A stretch of 32,000 nucleotides of DNA from Candidatus Iainarchaeum sp. (lineage in GTDB: Archaea > Iainarchaeota > Iainarchaeia > Iainarchaeales > VGJJ01). The notes under the pieces were generated by a model that worked only from the letters and a program-made list of their open reading frames with translations, was not told the origin of the DNA and did not search any database. The stretch lies in the NCBI GenBank assembly GCA_030688545.1, contig JAUYHT010000006.1:240001-272000 (forward strand), written 5' to 3'. Every line of letters begins with the position of its first letter. The stretch's first letter is position 1. Shown one piece after another: positions 10,727 to 19,034 of the stretch. The position numbers were made by a program, and so were the translations under genes.

Positions 10727-10765
10727 GAATGATAATCTTTCCCATTAACCAGGCGTGGAATGGAT
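10727..10765. repeat. 39-bp direct repeat, copy 2 (abuts the stop of the cupredoxin gene)
   Basis: See copy 1. A more diverged third copy (AATCTTT..CCCATTCTAACCAGG..CATTCCACG) lies at about 11262-11311, downstream of the second cupredoxin-like gene. Confidence 0.9.
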
Positions 10766-11208
10766 CAGTACCCTCCCCCAGGAGGAGGGTTTCCATCTCC
10801 ATTGGATGGCGGGGGTGGCGGTGGTTGGGAGGCGGGGGGAGTGGAAATGGTGTCCGGTGACCCTCCCGGCGACGCGGGGATGGTTCCGCCGGTTACCGTA
10901 ATCGATCCTTCGGGGAGGGTAGGGTGAAACACACATCGGTAAGAGAAGGTGCCCGTCTGCGCAAAAGTATAGGAATAGGTTCCCCCGGGCGGGATGCTTC
11001 CCGAATCAAAACCCAGGCCGGTGACGGTGTGCGCCACCGTGTCATCATTGCGCCAGGTCACCGTATCCCCTACCCCAATGGTCAATGTTTGAGGCACGTA
11101 ATTGAATCCCGTGATAGCGATGTCCGTTGGGGGAACTCCATTCCCAGGGGGTTGGGCGCACCCGGCGAGGAACAGCAATCCCAGGAGGGCAAGCACGAGT
11201 AGGCGCAT
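10765..11208 (-). CDS. Cupredoxin (amicyanin/plastocyanin-like) lipoprotein
   Basis: It has a signal peptide with lipobox LLFLAGC. VGDTVTWRNDDTVAHTV and YRCVFHPTLPEGSITV align with the type-1 copper loop Y-x-C-x2-H-x2-M, with Leu in place of Met. The tail is Pro/Gly-rich. Confidence 0.8.
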   Translation of the reverse strand: MRLLVLALLGLLFLAGCAQPPGNGVPPTDIAITGFNYVPQTLTIGVGDTVTWRNDDTVAHTVTGLGFDSGSIPPGGTYSYTFAQTGTFSYRCVFHPTLPEGSITVTGGTIPASPGGSPDTISTPPASQPPPPPPSNGDGNPPPGGGY

Positions 11209-11385: not shown

Positions 11386-11823
11386 TCATCCCTCTTGCAC
11401 GATGATAGTTCCGAATAAATGAGGGGCCAAGTGGTCGTGGTATTTCCATTCCCCCACATGGTTGAAGGTAAATGAGAATTCCTCTCCATTTGACAATCCC
11501 CGACAGGCATCGAATGCGCTCCCCAAACAGCCGCCCCCCTCGGGATAAGCGTTATGCGTGGGATGCACCGCCGAGGCCGGCCAATGAGGGTTAGTATCCG
11601 TGTTGCGGAAGGTGATGGTTTCCCCCTGTGTAATCGTGATGGTTGATGGGAAAAACCCGGACGAGGTGATGAGAATAATGTTGGGTTCCCCGGAAGTGGG
11701 AGGCGCCGGAGTAGCGGGAGGCGCGGGAATAGGGGGATTTCCCGCATCGGCGGGCTGGGCGCACCCCGATAATATAACGAGGAGGCTGATAGAAATGAGA
11801 AAAACCATTTTGGAATGCGCCAT
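11386..11823 (-). CDS. Cupredoxin-like lipoprotein with a non-canonical site
   Basis: Lipobox VILSGC is present. GETITFRNTDTNPHWPAS and the terminal WKYHDHLAPHLFGTIIV resemble a cupredoxin C-terminal strand but lack the ligand Cys. There is an extra CLGSAFDAC pair. Confidence 0.65.
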   Translation of the reverse strand: MAHSKMVFLISISLLVILSGCAQPADAGNPPIPAPPATPAPPTSGEPNIILITSSGFFPSTITITQGETITFRNTDTNPHWPASAVHPTHNAYPEGGGCLGSAFDACRGLSNGEEFSFTFNHVGEWKYHDHLAPHLFGTIIVQEG

Positions 11824-11867: not shown

Positions 11868-14156
11868 TCATTTCCGGGGGCGATAATTCTTCATGAGAAG
11901 GGAATTGGAGACCACGGAGACACTGCTGAAGGCCATGGCTGTGCCCGCGATGACCGGGCTGAGCAGCCATCCTGTGTAGGGAAATAGGATGCCCGCGGCG
12001 ATGGGTATTCCAATAATATTGTAGATGAAGGCCCAGAAGAAATTCTGCCTGATTTTTTTGAGGGTGTAATGACTGATGTCTATCGCTATGACCACATCCC
12101 GGAGGGAATTCTTGACGAGGATAATGTCTCCCGTCTCAATGGCCACGTCGGTGCCGGAACCAATGGCAATGCCCACGTCGGCTTGGGCGAGAGCGGGAGC
12201 ATCATTCACTCCATCTCCCACCATGGCGACCTTTTTTCCGTCTGATTGGAGGCGCTTGATTATTTTGGCTTTGTCCTCGGGCAACACCTCCGCTATGACC
12301 CGGTGAATCCCAACCTGCCTTCCAATGGCCTCCGCGGTGCGGGGATTATCTCCCGTGAGCAAGATGGTTTCTTTTCCCATTTTTTGCAAGGAAGCAATAG
12401 CCGCAGACGAATCTTCTTTCACAGTGTCCGCGACTGCTATCAATCCCGTTAATCGGTCATTGATTCCCACAAGCATGACGGTTTTCCCCTCGTGCTCGAG
12501 GCGGGCCATTTCATTTTCTGCATTCGTTATAGCGATTCGGTGCTCGGTAAATAGTTTGCGCGTCCCGATGAGAACTCTTTTGCTCCCCGCCCGCGCCGTC
12601 ACCCCCCCTCCCGGGATGGATTCAAATTTAGTAGTGGGAGGTAAAGAAATGCGTGATTTTTTGGCCGCCGAAACAATGGCCTCCGCGAGAGGGTGCTCGG
12701 ATAGTTGTTCCACGGCCGCAGCAATCCCGAGCAGTTCCTTTTCACTCACCTGGAAAAGCGGAATGACATCCGTGACTTCAGGTTTTCCATGCGTAATGGT
12801 TCCCGTCTTGTCGAACACAATCACATCCAATGATTTCACGCGCTCAAATGCGGCCGCGTTCTTGAAAAGAATACCATTCTCCGCCCCTAAACCCGTGCCC
12901 ACCATCACTGCGGTGGGAGTGGCCAGTCCGATGGCACAGGGGCACGCGATAATGAGTACCGTAACGAAAACCGTCAATGCGAACAGGAAGGGTTGTCCAG
13001 CGATGAAAAACCAGAATAGCCCGGAGAGAATGGCAATGATAATCACGATGGGCACAAATACTTCCGCGACCCGGTCCGCGAAGGCTTGGATGGGGGCTTT
13101 GCTCCCTTGCGCTTCTTCCACGATCTGAACAATTTGGGCCAGCATGGTATCCTTGCCCACTTTTTGGGCGCGAAATAAGAATGATCCTGTCTTGTTGATC
13201 GTGCTCCCTATCACGGTGTCACCAGGGTTCTTCTCCACGGGAATGCTTTCTCCGGTAATCATGCTCTCGTCAATGGAAGAATGGCCCTGGGTTACGGTAC
13301 CATCCACCGGAACCTTCTGCCCGGGCTTAACCCGGATGATGTCGCCCACTTTAACTTCTTCGATGGGAATTGACACTTCTTTTCCATTTCGGATGACAAT
13401 CGCGGTTTTGGCTTGGAGTCCTAACAATTTTTGCATGGCCGCGGACGTTTGTCCCTTGGCGCGGGCCTCGAAGTATTTTCCCAATAGAATAAAGGTAATT
13501 AGAAAAGCGGCTACCTCAAAGTACAAATCCTTCATGGAGAAGAGCGTGGATCCCGTGAGCATGGCGAGGGAGGCAATGACACTATACACGTAGGCGGAAC
13601 CCACTCCCACGGCAACTAACGTATCCATGTTGGGGGATAGGACATTTTTCAATCCCCGAATGAAGAATTCCCGGCCAATCCATAATACAATGGTGGACAG
13701 GACCAATTGGATAATGATCTCGTTTGCGTGAATGAAAGAAGGAACTGGCAAAGGGAAAAAATTGGCTAACATCAAATACATGAGGGGAAGGGAAAGAATG
13801 AAAGAGAAGAGAAACTTTTGTTTGTAAGCCTCGACCTCTCCTTCCTTTAATTGAGCATGATCATGATGAGAACCGCCACCATGGGATGAATGATTCATAC
13901 CCATAGGAGAATCTCCCATTCCTGGGTACAACTCATACCCTACTTTCTTTACGGCTTCCGCTAATTGTTTCTCGGTAACCGATTCATCGCTGGTCACGAA
14001 AGCTTTTTCCGAGGCAAAATTCACCGAGGCTAAATGTACCCCCGGGACTTTCCTCAATGCTTTCTCAATGGTGAGGGAGCATGAGGCGCAGTGCATACCC
14101 TTGATGGCGAAACTCCTTTTCTGGAGTGTGTCTGAATCCTTATCCATGTGTATCAT
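11868..14156 (-). CDS. copA: Copper-translocating P1B-type ATPase
   Basis: 762 aa with an N-terminal HMA domain [15 protein letters not shown], a His/Met-rich linker, TGES (ITGESIPV), CPC ([12 protein letters not shown]), DKTGT (FDKTGTIT) and [10 protein letters not shown]. Confidence 0.95.
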
Positions 14157-14317: not shown

Positions 14318-14563
14318 TCAGGCAAATCGGTTGTAGATGAATGCTATCACGTACCCGAATAGGAACCCCATGATGCCGGCTTCGATAATGCCGAACAGGA
14401 TGCCGATAGGAGAGAGGGTGAAGAACATGTGGGATTGCATCATCATCTGCGCCATCCCCCCATACATCCCCCAATTCCCGATAATCCCTAACACGAGCAT
14501 GCTCAAAGCCGAAACCCCGGCTCCAGCCAATCCCAATGCCATCACATTCAATTTAGTCACCAT
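14318..14563 (-). CDS. Small Met-rich membrane protein (81 aa)
   Basis: Two to three TM helices with a GMYGGMAQMMMQSHM stretch. GGAGGGAGG and A/T-rich boxes lie upstream. It sits directly upstream of copA. Confidence 0.65.
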   Translation of the reverse strand: MVTKLNVMALGLAGAGVSALSMLVLGIIGNWGMYGGMAQMMMQSHMFFTLSPIGILFGIIEAGIMGFLFGYVIAFIYNRFA

Positions 14564-14702
14564 TTTCCAATCAACCTCCCTCCGCTCACGCAGTCCGTTT
14601 TGTTATTTCACTGATAATGTCGATAGGACATTTCTAAATTCCCTCGTTTATATTCTTTTTTCTTTATACTCTCCTCGAATCGATTGGATAGCCAACTCAT
14701 GT

Positions 14703-15176
14703 TCATGAACCAGCCCCCCAGACGAAAACCCGTTCGGCCGCCCCACCCACTCCTCGCAGGCGTAACGTCAGCATCCGAGCGTCTTCCACGATGGGAAACA
14801 AGAGGATTCCGCTCCGATGATGACCCCCGGGAGGGCTTCCTTCCCATCCCAATGCGGCGTACGTTTTCCCTCTTCCATCCTCGAGCACGCTGACCTGAGT
14901 TAAATCTTCTTCCAGGGAGATGCGATGGTTGTCTAATGTCACATCGAACCGAATACCGTCTGAGGAGATGACCTTGGGGGTCACACTCACGGTTACCTCA
15001 TTCTGGTTGTCCACGAGCGAGGTGAAATCGGACGCACGCAGGGGGGCGGATTCCATCCCTGAGGGGGAAGGACTCTCAAGGAATAATCCATATCCCACCA
15101 CCCCTACCACTAACACAAAGGCGAGCACCAGGCCCGCTCCTAAAATTTCTTTCGTTTGACTCAATGCACTCGTCAT
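14703..15176 (-). CDS. Membrane-anchored extracytoplasmic beta-rich protein with a GGHH motif (operon gene 6)
   Basis: It has an N-terminal TM helix, then VTVSVTPKVIS..FDVTLDNHRISLEED..WEGSPPGGHHRSGILLF. The start is set at ATG 15176, 1 nt after the upstream TAA, with GAGGAGGG upstream. Confidence 0.7.
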   Translation of the reverse strand: MTSALSQTKEILGAGLVLAFVLVVGVVGYGLFLESPSPSGMESAPLRASDFTSLVDNQNEVTVSVTPKVISSDGIRFDVTLDNHRISLEEDLTQVSVLEDGRGKTYAALGWEGSPPGGHHRSGILLFPIVEDARMLTLRLRGVGGAAERVFVWGAGS

Positions 15177-15177
15177 T

Positions 15178-15651
15178 TTATCCCTCCTCATTTTGTTTTT
15201 GGATAATCGTTTGGGTTTGAAAAGAAAGGGCGTCGGTCAATAATCCATGCGTCTCAAGGACGGTGAGCATGTGCACTAACCCATACGCTCCCGCCAGGAG
15301 ACCAAAACCAAGGAATATTTGTTCATAGGACGCGAGCGCCGCGGCGATCCCCGCCATCCCTAATAGGGGAAATAAATCCAATACGTGATGCGCGCAGCAG
15401 GCAGCCATGCTTCCTGCGGATACCCCTCCCGCGGCCATCATGGCGGGGTTGGCTTTTCGCACGCGGTGCGCGAACGCATACAATCCCATCTGCGCTCCGA
15501 ATAATCCCACTAATGGAAGGAGGAGGAAGCCATTGCGCTGGAGGCTGTCCAGGGCGTGCGCTTCTCCATTCAGTAGCGTGAGCAGTCCTAAATAGGCGGC
15601 GAGGAGGAGTACCGATGCCAGAAGGCCAATGCCAATATCCTGTTTCTCCAT
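15178..15651 (-). CDS. Polytopic membrane protein with a CCAHH motif (operon gene 5)
   Basis: About 4 TM helices, with SMAACCAHHVLDLFP inside a helix. The start could be ATG 15651 (AAGGAG 8 nt upstream) or ATG 15657 (TGATG overlap with the upstream stop). Confidence 0.7.
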   Translation of the reverse strand: MEKQDIGIGLLASVLLLAAYLGLLTLLNGEAHALDSLQRNGFLLLPLVGLFGAQMGLYAFAHRVRKANPAMMAAGGVSAGSMAACCAHHVLDLFPLLGMAGIAAALASYEQIFLGFGLLAGAYGLVHMLTVLETHGLLTDALSFQTQTIIQKQNEEG

Positions 15652-15656
15652 CCTCA

Positions 15657-16199
15657 TCACTCCTTACAGCAGTCTACAAGTTTAGTGAAGAGTGCTGTCG
15701 CCTTCTGCATGGTAGTCGGGGGATCGGGAATCGAGGAAACGGGCGCCAGAATAGGTCTTCCTTTTTCCTTTTTTTCCATGGGAATATTCAACACAAAGAA
15801 AAGAGATAGAAGTTCAAATGCATGCGTAAAGAAGGGGAGGGCTTCCTTTTCTTGGTCGCGGGAATGGAGCTTGGTCCCCACCTCATACAGGCGCATGCTG
15901 GCCGCCAGCAGATGCTTGGAGGCGCACCATTCCTCCCCTTGTGGATTTTTGACCACCATTTTCATGGTTTCCTGACGCATGCCCCGGATCTCCTGCATGT
16001 AATCCAGGTATTTCGTTTCCTTGGTTTTGGCAAATGAAAAATAGAAATGCTCCTCCAGGCTGACGAGATTCATGAGGCCGATGGCCAAATCCTCGAGCGT
16101 GGACAAATCCCCTCCCTTCGTTTGAAAATCGTCGGGAAATGGATTCTCCTTTTTTCCATGAGAAATAGGATGCGAGGCGGAGGGAACATGGATCGCCAT
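15657..16199 (-). CDS. Soluble helical protein ending in DCCKE (operon gene 4)
   Basis: 180 aa counted from ATG 16199, 1 nt after the upstream TGA. It has no TM segment, an internal EEWCASKH and a C-terminal LVDCCKE. The track's longer start at 16235 overlaps the upstream gene. Confidence 0.65.
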   Translation of the reverse strand: MAIHVPSASHPISHGKKENPFPDDFQTKGGDLSTLEDLAIGLMNLVSLEEHFYFSFAKTKETKYLDYMQEIRGMRQETMKMVVKNPQGEEWCASKHLLAASMRLYEVGTKLHSRDQEKEALPFFTHAFELLSLFFVLNIPMEKKEKGRPILAPVSSIPDPPTTMQKATALFTKLVDCCKE

Positions 16200-16200
16200 G

Positions 16201-16740
16201 TCAAGCCACCCCCCACTGCAACAGGGCCGCGGCACTCCCTACGAGAAGGAGGGAGAGCAAAACCCCTTGATATGGGATGAGGCTCTTTCCCCTGGTTTTA
16301 CGAATACGCCCGTGCAGGCCATGCGCGACCAGCGCGGCAACCCCCCCGATGGCCACTCCCAAGTAGGATTTTTCAATCCAGTATACTTTATTGAGAAGCC
16401 CCCCGCTCTCTCCAAGGAGGCGCAGCGGCAATAGTATTTGGTCCGAGGGCAAGGCGTTCACGGCGATCGCGGTGAGGAGAAAGGTTCCCCCGATGACGAG
16501 CGCATCCTGGTGGGGAACGTATTTTTTCTTCATGGCCTGGGCGAACATCAACCCCATCACCATTCCCGCACCCCCCACAAAAGCCCCCACGGCTCCCAGG
16601 CCCATTCCCAAATAGGAAGCCGTCACCGCGCCCGTTCCCACGGCGAGCGTGCAGAGGGGGCAGTGGGCGTGAACCACGGGGCTTAACCCCAGGAGAGGGA
16701 CCCCGAAGAGTCCCCCGCGCAGGAGGGAGGGTGCGTTCAT
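16201..16740 (-). CDS. Polytopic membrane protein with an HAHCPLC motif (operon gene 3)
   Basis: 179 aa, Gly/Ala-rich TM helices, with VVHAHCPLCTLAVG at the first helix. Confidence 0.75.
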   Translation of the reverse strand: MNAPSLLRGGLFGVPLLGLSPVVHAHCPLCTLAVGTGAVTASYLGMGLGAVGAFVGGAGMVMGLMFAQAMKKKYVPHQDALVIGGTFLLTAIAVNALPSDQILLPLRLLGESGGLLNKVYWIEKSYLGVAIGGVAALVAHGLHGRIRKTRGKSLIPYQGVLLSLLLVGSAAALLQWGVA

Positions 16741-16741
16741 A

Positions 16742-17062
16742 TCAGCACCCGCCTACCATGGTTGGGGCGGCCGACGGAGCCGCGCTCGGCGTATTGGATG
16801 GGGCTGCGGGAGCAACGATATTCCCACTGAGCAACGCTCCGCCCGATCCGTTTACCTGCCGGATGTCCGCGGCGAGTTCCCCCACCTGGAGGAATTGCAC
16901 CACGCTCATCGCGAGCAGGAGAAAGGCTCCCAGGATCAGGAAATAAGACACGGTGTTTCTTTCCGGGGAGGCGACCTCTTTCCCGGCTTCCTCATGTTGG
17001 GTGGGCGCACCCTCTTTTCCGTGCGCAGAGTGGTTTTTACAACAGTCCATGTGTTCGCTCAT
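16742..17062 (-). CDS. Bitopic protein: N-terminal MDCCKNHSAH, one TM helix, Pro/Ala/Ser linker, C-terminal MVGGC (operon gene 2)
   Basis: 106-aa ORF. The ATG is 1 nt after the upstream TAA. Confidence 0.7.
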   Translation of the reverse strand: MSEHMDCCKNHSAHGKEGAPTQHEEAGKEVASPERNTVSYFLILGAFLLLAMSVVQFLQVGELAADIRQVNGSGGALLSGNIVAPAAPSNTPSAAPSAAPTMVGGC

Positions 17063-17063
17063 A

Positions 17064-17744
17064 TTAGCACCCCCCCACCATACCGGAGCCGCTTCCCTTC
17101 TCTATTCCGCGGTAAGCGTTCGAGGAGAGGTTGATGAAATTCAATGGGATTCCATTGGATTCCAGAGCGACGGCTTTCTGAGATATTTGCGTCGGGAAGA
17201 AGAGGGCTTTCCATTTCCCTAATTCTTCGAGTATTTGGTCATCCGTGTATTCGTCCGGGTGTTCCGTCAGGATATACTTGGCCACTCCCCGCATGGCGAA
17301 GCTGTGCGCGCACCCGCACGCGGCTTCCCCATTAGCGAAAATAATGGATTCCGCCCCGCAGCAGTATTCACAGCTAATCTGCAATAGGGTCTTGATGTAG
17401 CGTTCCTTAGCCTCCCCCTCTAATGTAATTGATTGATCCAAAGTGGCCAGTTTCCGGATAGTGGCATCCGCTTTCTGGGGGGAGTCGGCGGAGACATCGT
17501 CATAGGATATACCTAATTCCGCTCCGTATACTGGGGGCACGCCCTTGGGAAGCCCGGCGTATAGTTCTATTTGAGCAGGCGGTGTCGTGGGGGGAGCAGT
17601 GATCATTCCCGTGGCGGGATTCATTTGCGTCCCCATGCCACTTCCCATCATTTCCTGCATGCTCCCTAATTGCATGAAATTAATTACCGAAAAGACCAGC
17701 GCCAGGGCCAATAGCCCAGATGTAAGGGTCGTTGTCCGATCCAT
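17064..17744 (-). CDS. Membrane-anchored Met- and Cys-rich protein ending in MVGGC (operon gene 1)
   Basis: 226 aa with an N-terminal TM helix, Met cluster MQEMMGSGMGTQMNPATGM, Cys cluster SCEYCCGAESIIFANGEAACGCAHS and C-terminal GSGSGMVGGC. Confidence 0.75.
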   Translation of the reverse strand: MDRTTTLTSGLLALALVFSVINFMQLGSMQEMMGSGMGTQMNPATGMITAPPTTPPAQIELYAGLPKGVPPVYGAELGISYDDVSADSPQKADATIRKLATLDQSITLEGEAKERYIKTLLQISCEYCCGAESIIFANGEAACGCAHSFAMRGVAKYILTEHPDEYTDDQILEELGKWKALFFPTQISQKAVALESNGIPLNFINLSSNAYRGIEKGSGSGMVGGC

Positions 17745-17830
17745 AGTTCCATCATTCTCCTGCCATCCCTTCCCTGAGGGGAAGCGGATTTTTGATTAAG
17801 GAGGGAGCGAAACACCAATTATAGGTACGC

Positions 17831-17846
17831 GTGAAACTGGTTTCAC
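17831..17846. promoter_or_regulatory. Perfect palindrome GTGAAAC-TG-GTTTCAC between a TATA-like box and the regulator start
   Basis: 7-bp arms with a 2-bp spacer. It lies 6 nt after AATTATAGG (17817-17825) and 20 nt before ATG 17866. A second near-palindrome CTTCCCTGAGGGGAAG lies at 17769-17784. Confidence 0.4.
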
Positions 17847-17865: not shown

Positions 17866-18396
17866 ATGGCTTTTTCGTCTGGGAATACATACATTATGCT
17901 TCCTCCACGCACCCTGGGATATGTTCTCGTAATTTGTGCCATCGTCCTGGGCGGCATCCTCTTTTCCCTCAAATCCAACGCGGACACGCAGGGATTGGCA
18001 TTGTGCCAGGCCTACACCGAGCAGAACAAGGACATGGCCTCCTGCCCCGCGCACGACGACAACGTTTCCTGGTCTTTCATCACCGCCTTCGGCATCACCT
18101 TCATCGCCCTGGGCACGGGAGTGTATTTTGTAGTGGCACCTGTTCCTCCTTCCCCTCCCAATGAGGCGGTCGCCCTCTCCCCCGCCCCCACCTTCGATGC
18201 CTCTTCCCTGGAAGGGGATGAAAAAGGGGTGTGGGAAAAGATGGTGGAGGCCAACGGTTCATTATTCCAGAGTGACCTGACGCGAACAACGGGGTTTTCC
18301 AAGGTGAAGCTCTCCCGCATTCTGGACAAGCTGGAATCCAAAGGGGCCATCGAGCGCAAGCGCCGGGGAATGGCCAACCTGGTCGTGGCGAAGTAA
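17866..18396 (+). CDS. Membrane-anchored winged-helix transcription regulator (COG2512-like architecture)
   Basis: TM1 is followed by a roughly 35-aa loop with LALCQAYTEQNKDMASCPAHDD, then TM2, a Pro-rich linker and a C-terminal wHTH (LFQSDLTRTTGFSKVKLSRILDKLESKGAIERKRRG). It is divergent from the Cys-rich operon. Confidence 0.8.
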   Translation: MAFSSGNTYIMLPPRTLGYVLVICAIVLGGILFSLKSNADTQGLALCQAYTEQNKDMASCPAHDDNVSWSFITAFGITFIALGTGVYFVVAPVPPSPPNEAVALSPAPTFDASSLEGDEKGVWEKMVEANGSLFQSDLTRTTGFSKVKLSRILDKLESKGAIERKRRGMANLVVAK

Positions 18397-18465: not shown

Positions 18466-18855
18466 TTACCAGGTGGTCTTGATATAGCCGGAGGCGATAA
18501 TCGCCGGATCTTTAGTTATAGCCGTACCTCCTAATACCTTGGCCGTGGCCGTAATAATCTTATCATGGATTTCAGGCACCTTTTCTAAATGCTGGCACAC
18601 TCGGATAATCCCGAGAGTCAAATCATAAACAATGTAGTTACTGCTTTCCCCTATTTTACCTAAAAGTTCGGAGAACAATTCACTTGAATCCTTTTTCTCG
18701 CAGATATAGAGTGCTTCTGCCAACACGATGGTTGGAATGACGATCGTGTTTTCACCTTTTTCGGCCTGCCGGAATACTGATGCGGCATTTGAGGATAATT
18801 GGATGTTTTCCGTCAAAAACCATAATAGTGAATGGGTATCCGCGATATACATCAT
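18466..18855 (-). CDS. vapC: PIN-domain toxin (VapC-like)
   Basis: 129 aa with acidic PIN residues in IADTHS, VLAEAL, IHDKIITATA and AITKD. It overlaps the upstream antitoxin ORF by 4 nt. Confidence 0.85.
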   Translation of the reverse strand: MMYIADTHSLLWFLTENIQLSSNAASVFRQAEKGENTIVIPTIVLAEALYICEKKDSSELFSELLGKIGESSNYIVYDLTLGIIRVCQHLEKVPEIHDKIITATAKVLGGTAITKDPAIIASGYIKTTW

Positions 18856-19034
18856 CGTAATGAATGAAACAGAGACTTCTCAGAGTCGGCAATATCTGTT
18901 TCCGATATCTCGATGCTTTTCCAGAGTCCGGCGATTGACACTACCTTTTTAGCGCCAGGTTGGATGGCACTTTTCAGCTCATTCAACGCATGCTCCAGAT
19001 CTTCCATCTTTTTAGCGAGCAATAGCGAATCCAT
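18852..19034 (-). CDS. Putative VapB-type antitoxin (60 aa)
   Basis: Small ORF overlapping vapC by 4 nt. TATATAAA (19058-19065, minus-strand sense) lies 24-31 nt upstream of the ATG. Confidence 0.65.
   Translation of the reverse strand: MDSLLLAKKMEDLEHALNELKSAIQPGAKKVVSIAGLWKSIEISETDIADSEKSLFHSLR

Follow-up and report, generated by a model that had tools for sequence, protein, structure and literature searches.

A candidate copper-responsive surface system for Cu(I) handling, built largely from new components, in a Diapherotrites genome

We analysed a 32,000-nucleotide (nt) stretch of contig JAUYHT010000006.1 (positions 240,001 to 272,000; assembly GCA_030688545.1, Candidatus Iainarchaeum sp.), hereafter the window, which belongs to a metagenome-assembled genome of Candidatus Diapherotrites, within the DPANN lineages (Diapherotrites, Parvarchaeota, Aenigmarchaeota, Nanoarchaeota and Nanohaloarchaeota). 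The window holds six consecutive minus-strand genes, here called g1 to g6, which stand between a regulator gene and a group formed by g7, the copper ATPase gene copA and two genes for cupredoxin-like lipoproteins. We consider it probable, with some reservation, that this locus encodes a copper-responsive, thiol-based system that handles Cu(I) at the cell surface and does so with new components. A copper homeostasis operon is known in kind; almost all of the parts of this one are new.

Results

A scan of GTDB that took one genome per species found relatives of g1 in 321 species, and 80 loci were examined, one per species; these are related by descent, many of their contigs are short, and up to 8 kb was fetched on each flank. 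CopG/DUF411 (Pfam, 5.7e-23) is encoded in 28 of the 80, and 20 of these 28 copies lie between g1 and g3; CopG contributes to copper resistance and binds a tetranuclear copper (Cu4) cluster via CxCC (PMC7558416). By a strict criterion (E<1e-60 within the fetched flanks), CopA is present in 24/80 loci, with the CPC motif in 21 of the 24, and the other recurrent families are DUF5676 (18/80), Met-rich SHOCT proteins (12/80), PadR-TRASH regulators (9/80), PCYCGC (7/80) and DUF302 (7/80). With SHOCT proteins left out of the count, 53 loci have one or more known copper or metal markers. The linkage to P1B ATPases that an earlier note on this DNA had suggested is statistically real across DPANN and, for g5 to g7, also in the candidate phyla radiation (CPR).

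In the window itself, CopA has an N-terminal HMA domain (GMHCASC), a His/Met-rich linker and the membrane motif CPC (IIACPCAIG), and Pfam HMA, E1-E2_ATPase and Hydrolase all match it, which qualifies it as a P1B-1 ATPase. One of the cupredoxin-like proteins (10765-11208) passes the Pfam Cupredoxin_1 threshold (28.4 bits, cut-off 27), and the other (11386-11823) has sub-threshold matches to Cupredoxin_1 and Copper-bind and an NCBIfam plastocyanin match (4.2e-5) far below its cut-off. The clearest case comes from a homologous operon on a Gottesmanbacteria (CPR) contig (L091), in which csoR, cupredoxin, copA, DUF1573, ccdA, a rhodanese/g1-like gene, g5, g6 and DUF5676 follow one another in this order, and the CsoR carries the Cu(I)-type C...H-x3-C signature. 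In L092, the gene directly downstream of a g6 homologue encodes a YHS/HMBD ATPase, with a multicopper oxidase nearby, and g5 homologues lie within ATPase/DUF302/ArsR islands (L089, L090).

The g1 protein has 1760 homologues, all annotated as "hypothetical", mostly from DPANN lineages and 52-70% identical. Its invariant cluster C125-x2-CC ... C143-x-C-x-H147 (nt 17304-17372) lies in the segments SCEYCCG and ACGCAHS, which are invariant or nearly so among the homologues, as is the terminal VGGC; the flexible tail ends in MVGGC-COOH (nt 17067-17081). The Met cluster MQEMMGSGMGTQM, which the earlier note had listed as a soft-ligand motif of g1, is present, but it sits in a variable low-complexity linker and is not conserved. 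The AlphaFold2 model (pLDDT, the predicted local distance difference test, 90.5) consists of an N-terminal transmembrane helix, a disordered linker and an all-helical ectodomain, with the Cys cluster carried on a small beta-hairpin region of the latter. As the earlier note had asked, the models of g1 and g6 were compared by Foldseek to PDB folds; no PDB fold resembled the confident g1 model (best E 2.7), whose ectodomain is predicted to be a new alpha-helical fold without a solved relative. A distant relationship does appear in a family of lipoproteins of about 390 aa that combine a PspE-like rhodanese with a g1-like CC/C-x-H domain: hhalign aligns the g1 ectodomain with the C-terminal domain of this family at a probability of 85.6% over 116 columns. 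The family is found in 10 DPANN loci and in one CPR operon (for example L025:11755-12945 and L091:4432-5622), the C-terminal Cys tail of its members differs from that of g1, being SCGA or GCFA, and its g1-like domain had no PDB sequence match.

The MVGGC terminus is shared well beyond g1. Among the 9818 open reading frames of the 80 loci, 164 end in GGC, 159 of them in exactly MVGGC, which is far beyond chance; 76 of the 164 are g1 and the other 88 are small single-pass proteins (median 81 aa) that adjoin g1 and share its N-terminal transmembrane motif ..VQAFQI... The small protein of the window, g2, has the predicted cytoplasmic N-terminus MDCCKNHSAH (DCCK at nt 17036-17047), a transmembrane helix, a linker rich in Ser, Ala and Pro, and the conserved C-terminus MVGGC-COOH (nt 16745-16759). 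An N-terminal cytoplasmic CC of this kind is found in 12 of the 88 small proteins, WTExEKMxYExH in 25 and MMAxMHP in 16. The trans-envelope relay that the earlier note had envisaged stays hypothetical; g1 and g2, being single-pass proteins, cannot by themselves conduct metal. We found no description of the MVGGC-COOH tail, its invariance or its use across a family in the searchable literature.

The divergent regulator gene upstream of g1, found in 58 of the 80 loci, encodes a protein that matches Pfam DUF7343 (PF24034) above threshold over residues 118-174 (39.9 bits, cut-off 27.6). Two predicted transmembrane segments (residues 17-35 and 72-90) would leave the winged helix-turn-helix (wHTH) domain in the cytoplasm and the loop C47-x8-DM-x2-CPAH63 (nt 18004-18054) outside, and the pattern LC-x(8-14)-DMxxCPAH is kept in this loop across 48 regulator homologues. 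Between the regulator and g1 lies a palindrome that was spotted by eye and then tested, the inverted-repeat tool having missed it because its arms are only 7 nt long. It is the sole match within the window. When the 80 loci were scanned with up to two mismatches from -150 to +120 nt around the estimated g1 start, TGAAAC-N2-GTTTCA was found in 45 of them, compared with 13 matches in the remaining 827,587 positions. Judging from this conservation, the palindrome is likely the operator of the regulator. Extra copies were seen immediately upstream of a P-type ATPase gene in one locus (L039:1918) and about 1.7 kb upstream in another (L029:10853), which hints that the regulon may include the pump in some species. 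A second short inverted repeat, CTTCCC-TGAG-GGGAAG (17769-17784), lies in the leader or promoter region of g1, between the g1 start (17744) and the putative operator.

In the polytopic g3 protein, a segment that resembles a signal peptide ends with an invariant A|HCPLC (nt 16651-16665). The g3 alignment (A4) shows A25, H26, C27, L29 and C30 as invariant, with Ala always at position -1 and mostly Val or Ala, with one Ser, at position -3; given these cleavage-like residues, the mature protein may begin with His-Cys-Pro-Leu-Cys. A P-x-Q motif is repeated in both predicted cytoplasmic loops. The g4 protein, whose homologues form 361 representative clusters, is never found without g3 (29/29 loci). 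Its alignment (A3) has the invariant motifs EEH, EWCxSKH and MRxxE (invariant residues E49, E50, H51, E89, W91, C92, K95, H96, M102, R103 and E106), and most members end in DCCKE(W), here the tail DCCKE (nt 15660-15674). Inteins usually occupy functionally critical sites, and in two g4 homologues (P0334, P0418) an intein of about 370 aa interrupts the protein precisely at the invariant Cys in EWC|xSKH (..EDWC-LPPQ...VVHN-CISKHLL), which argues that the EWC site, and C92 within it, is functionally central. Other homologues (P0299, P0302, P0304, P0348 and P0359 among them) have tandem duplications of the domain, ending in DCCIE or DCCLE, or fusions to thioredoxin/glutaredoxin-like CxxC domains placed either N-terminally (SPNCGSC) or C-terminally (EPTCPHC), the fused proteins including P0348 and P0359. 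We further observed a 148-aa polytopic family ending in ECCKKW, downstream of g1 in 8 loci (for example L076:10564-11007), and hhalign aligns this tail with the DCCKEW of g4 at a probability of 84.5% over 16 columns; by its sequence this family looks like a second carrier of the g4-type cytoplasmic CC tail.

The g5 protein carries an intramembrane C87-C88-A-H90-H in its third transmembrane helix (nt 15388-15399), of which C87, C88 and H90 are invariant in the alignment (A5). In g6 the conserved feature is TH...WEGSPPGGHH (alignment A6), with three invariant His (H89, H124 and H125; GGHH at nt 14817-14828), on a domain that AlphaFold2 predicts to be an Ig-like beta-sandwich with pLDDT above 90; its best Foldseek matches are weak and fall among generic Ig-like folds (DUF4426, E 3.6e-3). 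The two are fused into one protein in many loci, and contigs without g1 to g4, among them Nitrospirae, Chloroflexi and CPR ones, also have g5 and g6 as an adjacent pair. The fusion, together with this adjacent pairing elsewhere, indicates that g5 and g6 form one functional unit. In a further arrangement (L072:1382-2266), the fusion partner of a g6-type His domain (ANTHSVDL...SGHHASG) is a different membrane domain, in which ICHSVC replaces the CC-x-HH of g5, suggesting modular swapping of the membrane partner of g6. The Met-rich g7 protein matches DUF5676 (PF18926) above threshold (32.6 bits, cut-off 27.6, 75/82 profile positions), and DUF5676 homologues come after g6 in the CPR operon with CsoR and CopA described above and are also present in L089.

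Taken as a whole, the conserved Cys/His motifs that the earlier note had pointed to are real, being kept across homologues of all six genes. Its picture of one six-gene operon is borne out in part: the genes are contiguous here, with gaps of 1 nt or short overlaps between g1 and g6 that make an operon plausible, but they are not a single unit. The locus consists of two modules that differ in distribution, g1-g4 with the small tail proteins, which is almost exclusively found in DPANN-labelled contigs, and g5-g6(-g7), which is widespread, bacteria included, and often fused. The usual order in related loci is regulator, g1, small protein(s), g3, g4, g5/g6 and sometimes DUF5676, with copA on either side. 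Component counts were restricted to the 42 full-length loci (at least 4 kb downstream of g1), where a small GGC-tailed protein is present in 40, g3 in 33, g4 in 29 and g5/g6 in 31.

The earlier note had also stated that none of the six proteins could be placed in a known family, and our searches agree; all six are "hypothetical" proteins. The reading frames and all the motifs it quoted are in the sequence, and independent gene calls on the public contig reproduce the g1-g6 frames. Nothing beyond noise was found in Pfam or NCBIfam for g1 to g6, nor for any member of the g3, g4 and g5/g6 alignments; PDB sequence searches, with profile searches for g1, g3, g4 and a g5-g6 fusion, returned no match; and profile searches assigned none of the six to a known mer, cytochrome c maturation or Dsb pathway. 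Several specific candidates were rejected. For g5, the MerT profile NF033560 (merT_RC607) scored 12.7 bits (cut-off 130) at E 0.13, and Pfam MerT did not match; for a mer system more broadly, no Pyr_redox or MerB family was seen in the contig gene calls or the recurrent clusters of the 80 loci. The g1 protein is neither CopG/DUF411 (PF04214; hhalign 0.6%, no Pfam match) nor PCYCGC (PF13798), an idea prompted by ACGCAHS (hhalign 2.5%, no Pfam match at E<=1). The g5, g6 and fused homologues have no CopC or CopD (PF04234/PF05425) profile match at E<=1, and g3 and g5, with one CxxC and one CC respectively, do not match CcdA/DsbD_TM (PF02683), Dsb or VKOR. No Ccm or Ccs profile matches g1 to g6, Ccm genes being merely neighbours in two non-DPANN contigs, and g3 gives no profile signal for Lgt (PF01790). 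In the searchable literature we found no description of the cluster or of DUF5676.

Coordinates of the features are collected in Table 1. Base composition varies along the window: positions 16001-17000 (g2-g3) have a G+C content of 0.59, most of the copper region 0.52-0.55, and the stretch at 21-28 kb 0.38-0.44. This heterogeneity could reflect the amino acid bias of Gly/Ala-rich membrane proteins, or the neighbouring block could have been acquired horizontally. Adjoining the regulator are a PIN-domain protein (18466-18855) and a small overlapping upstream reading frame (18852-19034), which resemble a toxin-antitoxin pair of the VapBC type; a second assembly (L002) has this pair beside the cluster as well.

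Table 1. Genes and sites of the copper region of the window
Feature	Position (nt)	Strand	Remark
Regulator	17866-18396	+	membrane-anchored wHTH (DUF7343/MarR-like); gene callers' start 17896
Putative operator	17831-17846		GTGAAAC-TG-GTTTCAC; between regulator and g1
g1	17064-17744	-	single-pass, predicted N-in
g2	16742-17062	-	small single-pass tail protein
g3	16201-16740	-	polytopic membrane protein
g4	15657-16199	-	helical, probably cytoplasmic; 180 aa from ATG
g5	15178-15657	-	protein with four predicted transmembrane helices
g6	14703-15191	-	transmembrane anchor and predicted Ig-like beta-sandwich ectodomain
g7	14318-14563	-	DUF5676; 81 aa, two predicted transmembrane helices with Met-rich loop
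copA	11868-14156	-	P1B-1 Cu(I) ATPase
Cupredoxin-like lipoprotein	11386-11823	-	lipobox LSGC
Cupredoxin-like lipoprotein	10765-11208	-	lipobox LAGC

Discussion

The earlier note had suggested a soft-metal or thiol function for this locus, and given the motif conservation and the gene linkage this is still the best reading. As to the metal, copper is the likeliest, because CopG/DUF411 is embedded in the cluster, the linked CopA is of the CPC type, TRASH regulators recur beside it and a homologous operon is under CsoR; the mercury and arsenic that the note had also considered find no support, as no merA, merB or ars genes were seen on this contig or among the recurrent gene families of the related loci. 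We draw here on sequence, conservation, fusions and gene linkage, from which we infer metal binding, topology, signal-peptide cleavage, the direction of transport and regulation.

We propose that the wHTH regulator senses the exterior through its Cys/Met/Cys-Pro-x-His loop and would control the operon through the palindrome upstream of g1. The g1 protein, with its CxxCC...CxCxH centre, and one to three small tail proteins would be tethered outside the membrane, where they could capture and relay Cu(I), among it the ions that CopA expels, and in a quarter of species the embedded CopG/DUF411 may cooperate with them. The g3 protein, with HCPLC at the outer face, and its obligate partner g4, with its E/H/C/H site and DCCKE tail, would form a membrane and cytoplasmic arm that either keeps the outside thiols functional or exchanges copper with them, a role that CcdA may fill in related operons. 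Several thiol-redox signals fit such a servicing arm, namely the thioredoxin fusions of g4, the DsbA, VKOR and rhodanese neighbours, and the presence of CcdA mainly where g3 and g4 are missing (4/9 loci without them versus 1/33 with them; Fisher p=0.005, uncorrected for phylogeny). Finally, g5-g6(-g7) could be a separate and older module that moves copper across the membrane, whether inward or outward, as an analogue of CopD-CopC/YcnJ or MerT-MerP.

A number of observations weigh against this proposal. No known copper marker was found in the fetched flanks of 27 of the 80 loci, many of which lie on short contigs, and no second operator stands upstream of copA or g7 within the window. The fold match of g6 to the H. 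pylori copper protein CrdA (9ll2) is sub-significant (rank 4, E 7.4e-3, TM-score 0.35/0.47). In a Nitrospirae contig (L084:7001-14594) g5-g6 lies directly upstream of ccmH-thioredoxin-ccmE-ccmF...ccmABC, and in a metagenome contig (L088) its neighbours are two thioredoxins and a CcmF-like gene; the copper model leaves this association with cytochrome c maturation unexplained. Moreover, g1 keeps about 55% identity between contigs labelled with different DPANN lineages, and many of its polar residues are invariant; this enzyme-like conservation, together with the near-absolute invariance of MVGGC, exceeds what simple buffering would need and hints at catalysis or specific docking. There is also a bolder version, which we regard as speculative and rather doubtful: the g1/rhodanese-fused enzyme-like domain, membrane-tethered MVGGC carriers acting as swinging arms and the g3-g4 route could together form a new DPANN/CPR surface machine that, outside the membrane, chemically transforms copper instead of just binding it, for example by thiol- or persulfide-driven reduction or by sulfide trapping.

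Among the alternatives, the one that survives best, unlikely as we find it, is that the locus is primarily an extracytoplasmic thiol-disulfide system, reducing or oxidising, in which g4 (with thioredoxin) would feed g3 and, through it, the outside Cys of g1 and the tail proteins, comparable to CcdA/DsbD-TlpA or ScsB-ScsC, and in which the copper link is indirect, for example because thiols that copper has oxidised are repaired or because surface proteins are matured. The fusions of g4 to thioredoxin/glutaredoxin-like CxxC domains, the recurrence of DsbA-like, VKOR/Trx, rhodanese and CcdA genes nearby, the tendency of CcdA and g3-g4 towards mutual exclusion, the ccm and thioredoxin neighbours of g5-g6 and the fusion of a g1-like domain to a PspE-like rhodanese all speak for such a system. 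Yet g1 to g6 contain no thioredoxin fold or Dsb/CcdA profile match, the g6 ectodomain has no Cys and just three invariant His, and the Met/His-rich motifs of the tail proteins serve as ligands for metal rather than as redox groups, while CopG, CopA, CsoR and TRASH genes lie within or beside the operons. This alternative also overlaps with the thiol-maintenance arm of the copper model rather than excluding that model.

A second alternative, which seems to us quite improbable, treats MVGGC-COOH as a sorting or processing signal whose terminal Cys is processed, cross-linked or lipidated by g3 or g1 in the manner of a sortase or exosortase. In known C-terminal sorting signals the motif is followed by a transmembrane helix and a basic tail. 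MVGGC is itself the very C-terminus, with nothing after it, the rhodanese-fused relatives carry SCGA or GCFA instead, and the copper linkage, the Met/His motifs and the cytoplasmic partner g4 would be left unaccounted for. What speaks for a signal is that the identical pentapeptide stands on 159/164 tails from distant lineages after variable low-complexity linkers, that g1 and the small proteins share their N-terminal transmembrane motif, and that these substrate-like paralogues cluster beside a polytopic g3 with an invariant H-C-x-x-C; thioether lipidation of Cys does exist in archaea (PMC12462473). From the literature we considered for g3 a kinship with the archaeal lipidation enzymes AliA and AliB (arCOG02177/02178), whose marks would be an Lgt-like polytopic architecture and two conserved Arg (or His); AliA has been compared with Lgt (PMC12462473), for which g3 gives no profile signal. 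No protease or transferase family matches g3 either. Detoxification of mercury or arsenic of the mer/ars kind can be set aside as very improbable, since the vicinal Cys pairs in the g5 helix and in the tails, the very weak NCBIfam match of g5 to MerT and the ArsR-type regulator preceding one g5 homologue are opposed by a linked pump of the CPC/HMA Cu(I) type, by the copper-specific Cu(I)-signature CsoR, CopG and multicopper oxidase, and by contig gene calls and recurrent families of the 80 loci in which there is no MerA, MerB, ArsC, ArsB or Acr3.

DPANN and CPR genomes are tiny and leave little room for accessory functions, yet relatives of g1 are kept in 321 GTDB species. If the copper reading is true, the locus would add several new parts to what is known of copper homeostasis: a surface Cys-cluster protein, tail-tagged carriers, a CopCD-like permease module with CC and HH motifs, and a metal-sensing transcription factor that is tethered to the membrane and has a defined operator. 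The way in which cells without a periplasm manage the Cu(I) that CopA has expelled would be explained as well. The families further provide annotation handles for thousands of database proteins, including the 1760 homologues of g1 and the 361 clusters of g4, and the palindrome provides a regulon motif that can be tested.

Comparison with known systems

The g5-g6 module resembles CopC-CopD/YcnJ in having a predicted outside beta-sandwich with conserved His (g6), a membrane partner (g5), frequent fusion of the two and a place in copper operons. However, CopD is a larger, multi-helix protein, while g5 has four transmembrane helices with CC-x-HH inside the membrane; neither g5 nor g6 has a CopC or CopD profile match, and the fold match of g6 to the CopC-like CrdA is marginal. 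The module also bears a putative likeness to MerT-MerP and MerF, since g5 carries a vicinal Cys pair in mid-membrane and a Pro/Gly-rich helix end and is paired with an outside metal-binding domain; it differs in that g6 offers His ligands and no CxxC, that MerA was not seen and that the context is one of copper. With CopG, g1 shares an outside vicinal-Cys cluster (CxxCC + CxC + H), and CopG sits inside the same operons in 28/80 species, but g1 is all-helical and non-homologous to CopG, which has the thioredoxin fold.

By analogy, the CcdA/DsbD systems (ScsB-ScsC, TlpA-Sco) also contain outside Cys proteins that need a reductant supplied across the membrane, and CcdA itself is encoded both by the CPR operon and by DPANN loci without g3-g4. 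Neither g3 nor g4 matches the DsbD_TM profile, and g3 has a single outer-face CxxC rather than one Cys in each of two helices; any equivalence between them would be putative. Terminal motifs for metal hand-off are known from the C-terminal CC tail of MerA and the C-terminal HCH of human Ctr1, and Met/His motifs from SilE/PcoE. In MVGGC we see a similar arrangement, a flexible terminus that places a thiol near a thioether, and the small proteins that bear it carry SilE-type MxxH/MMxxMH motifs.

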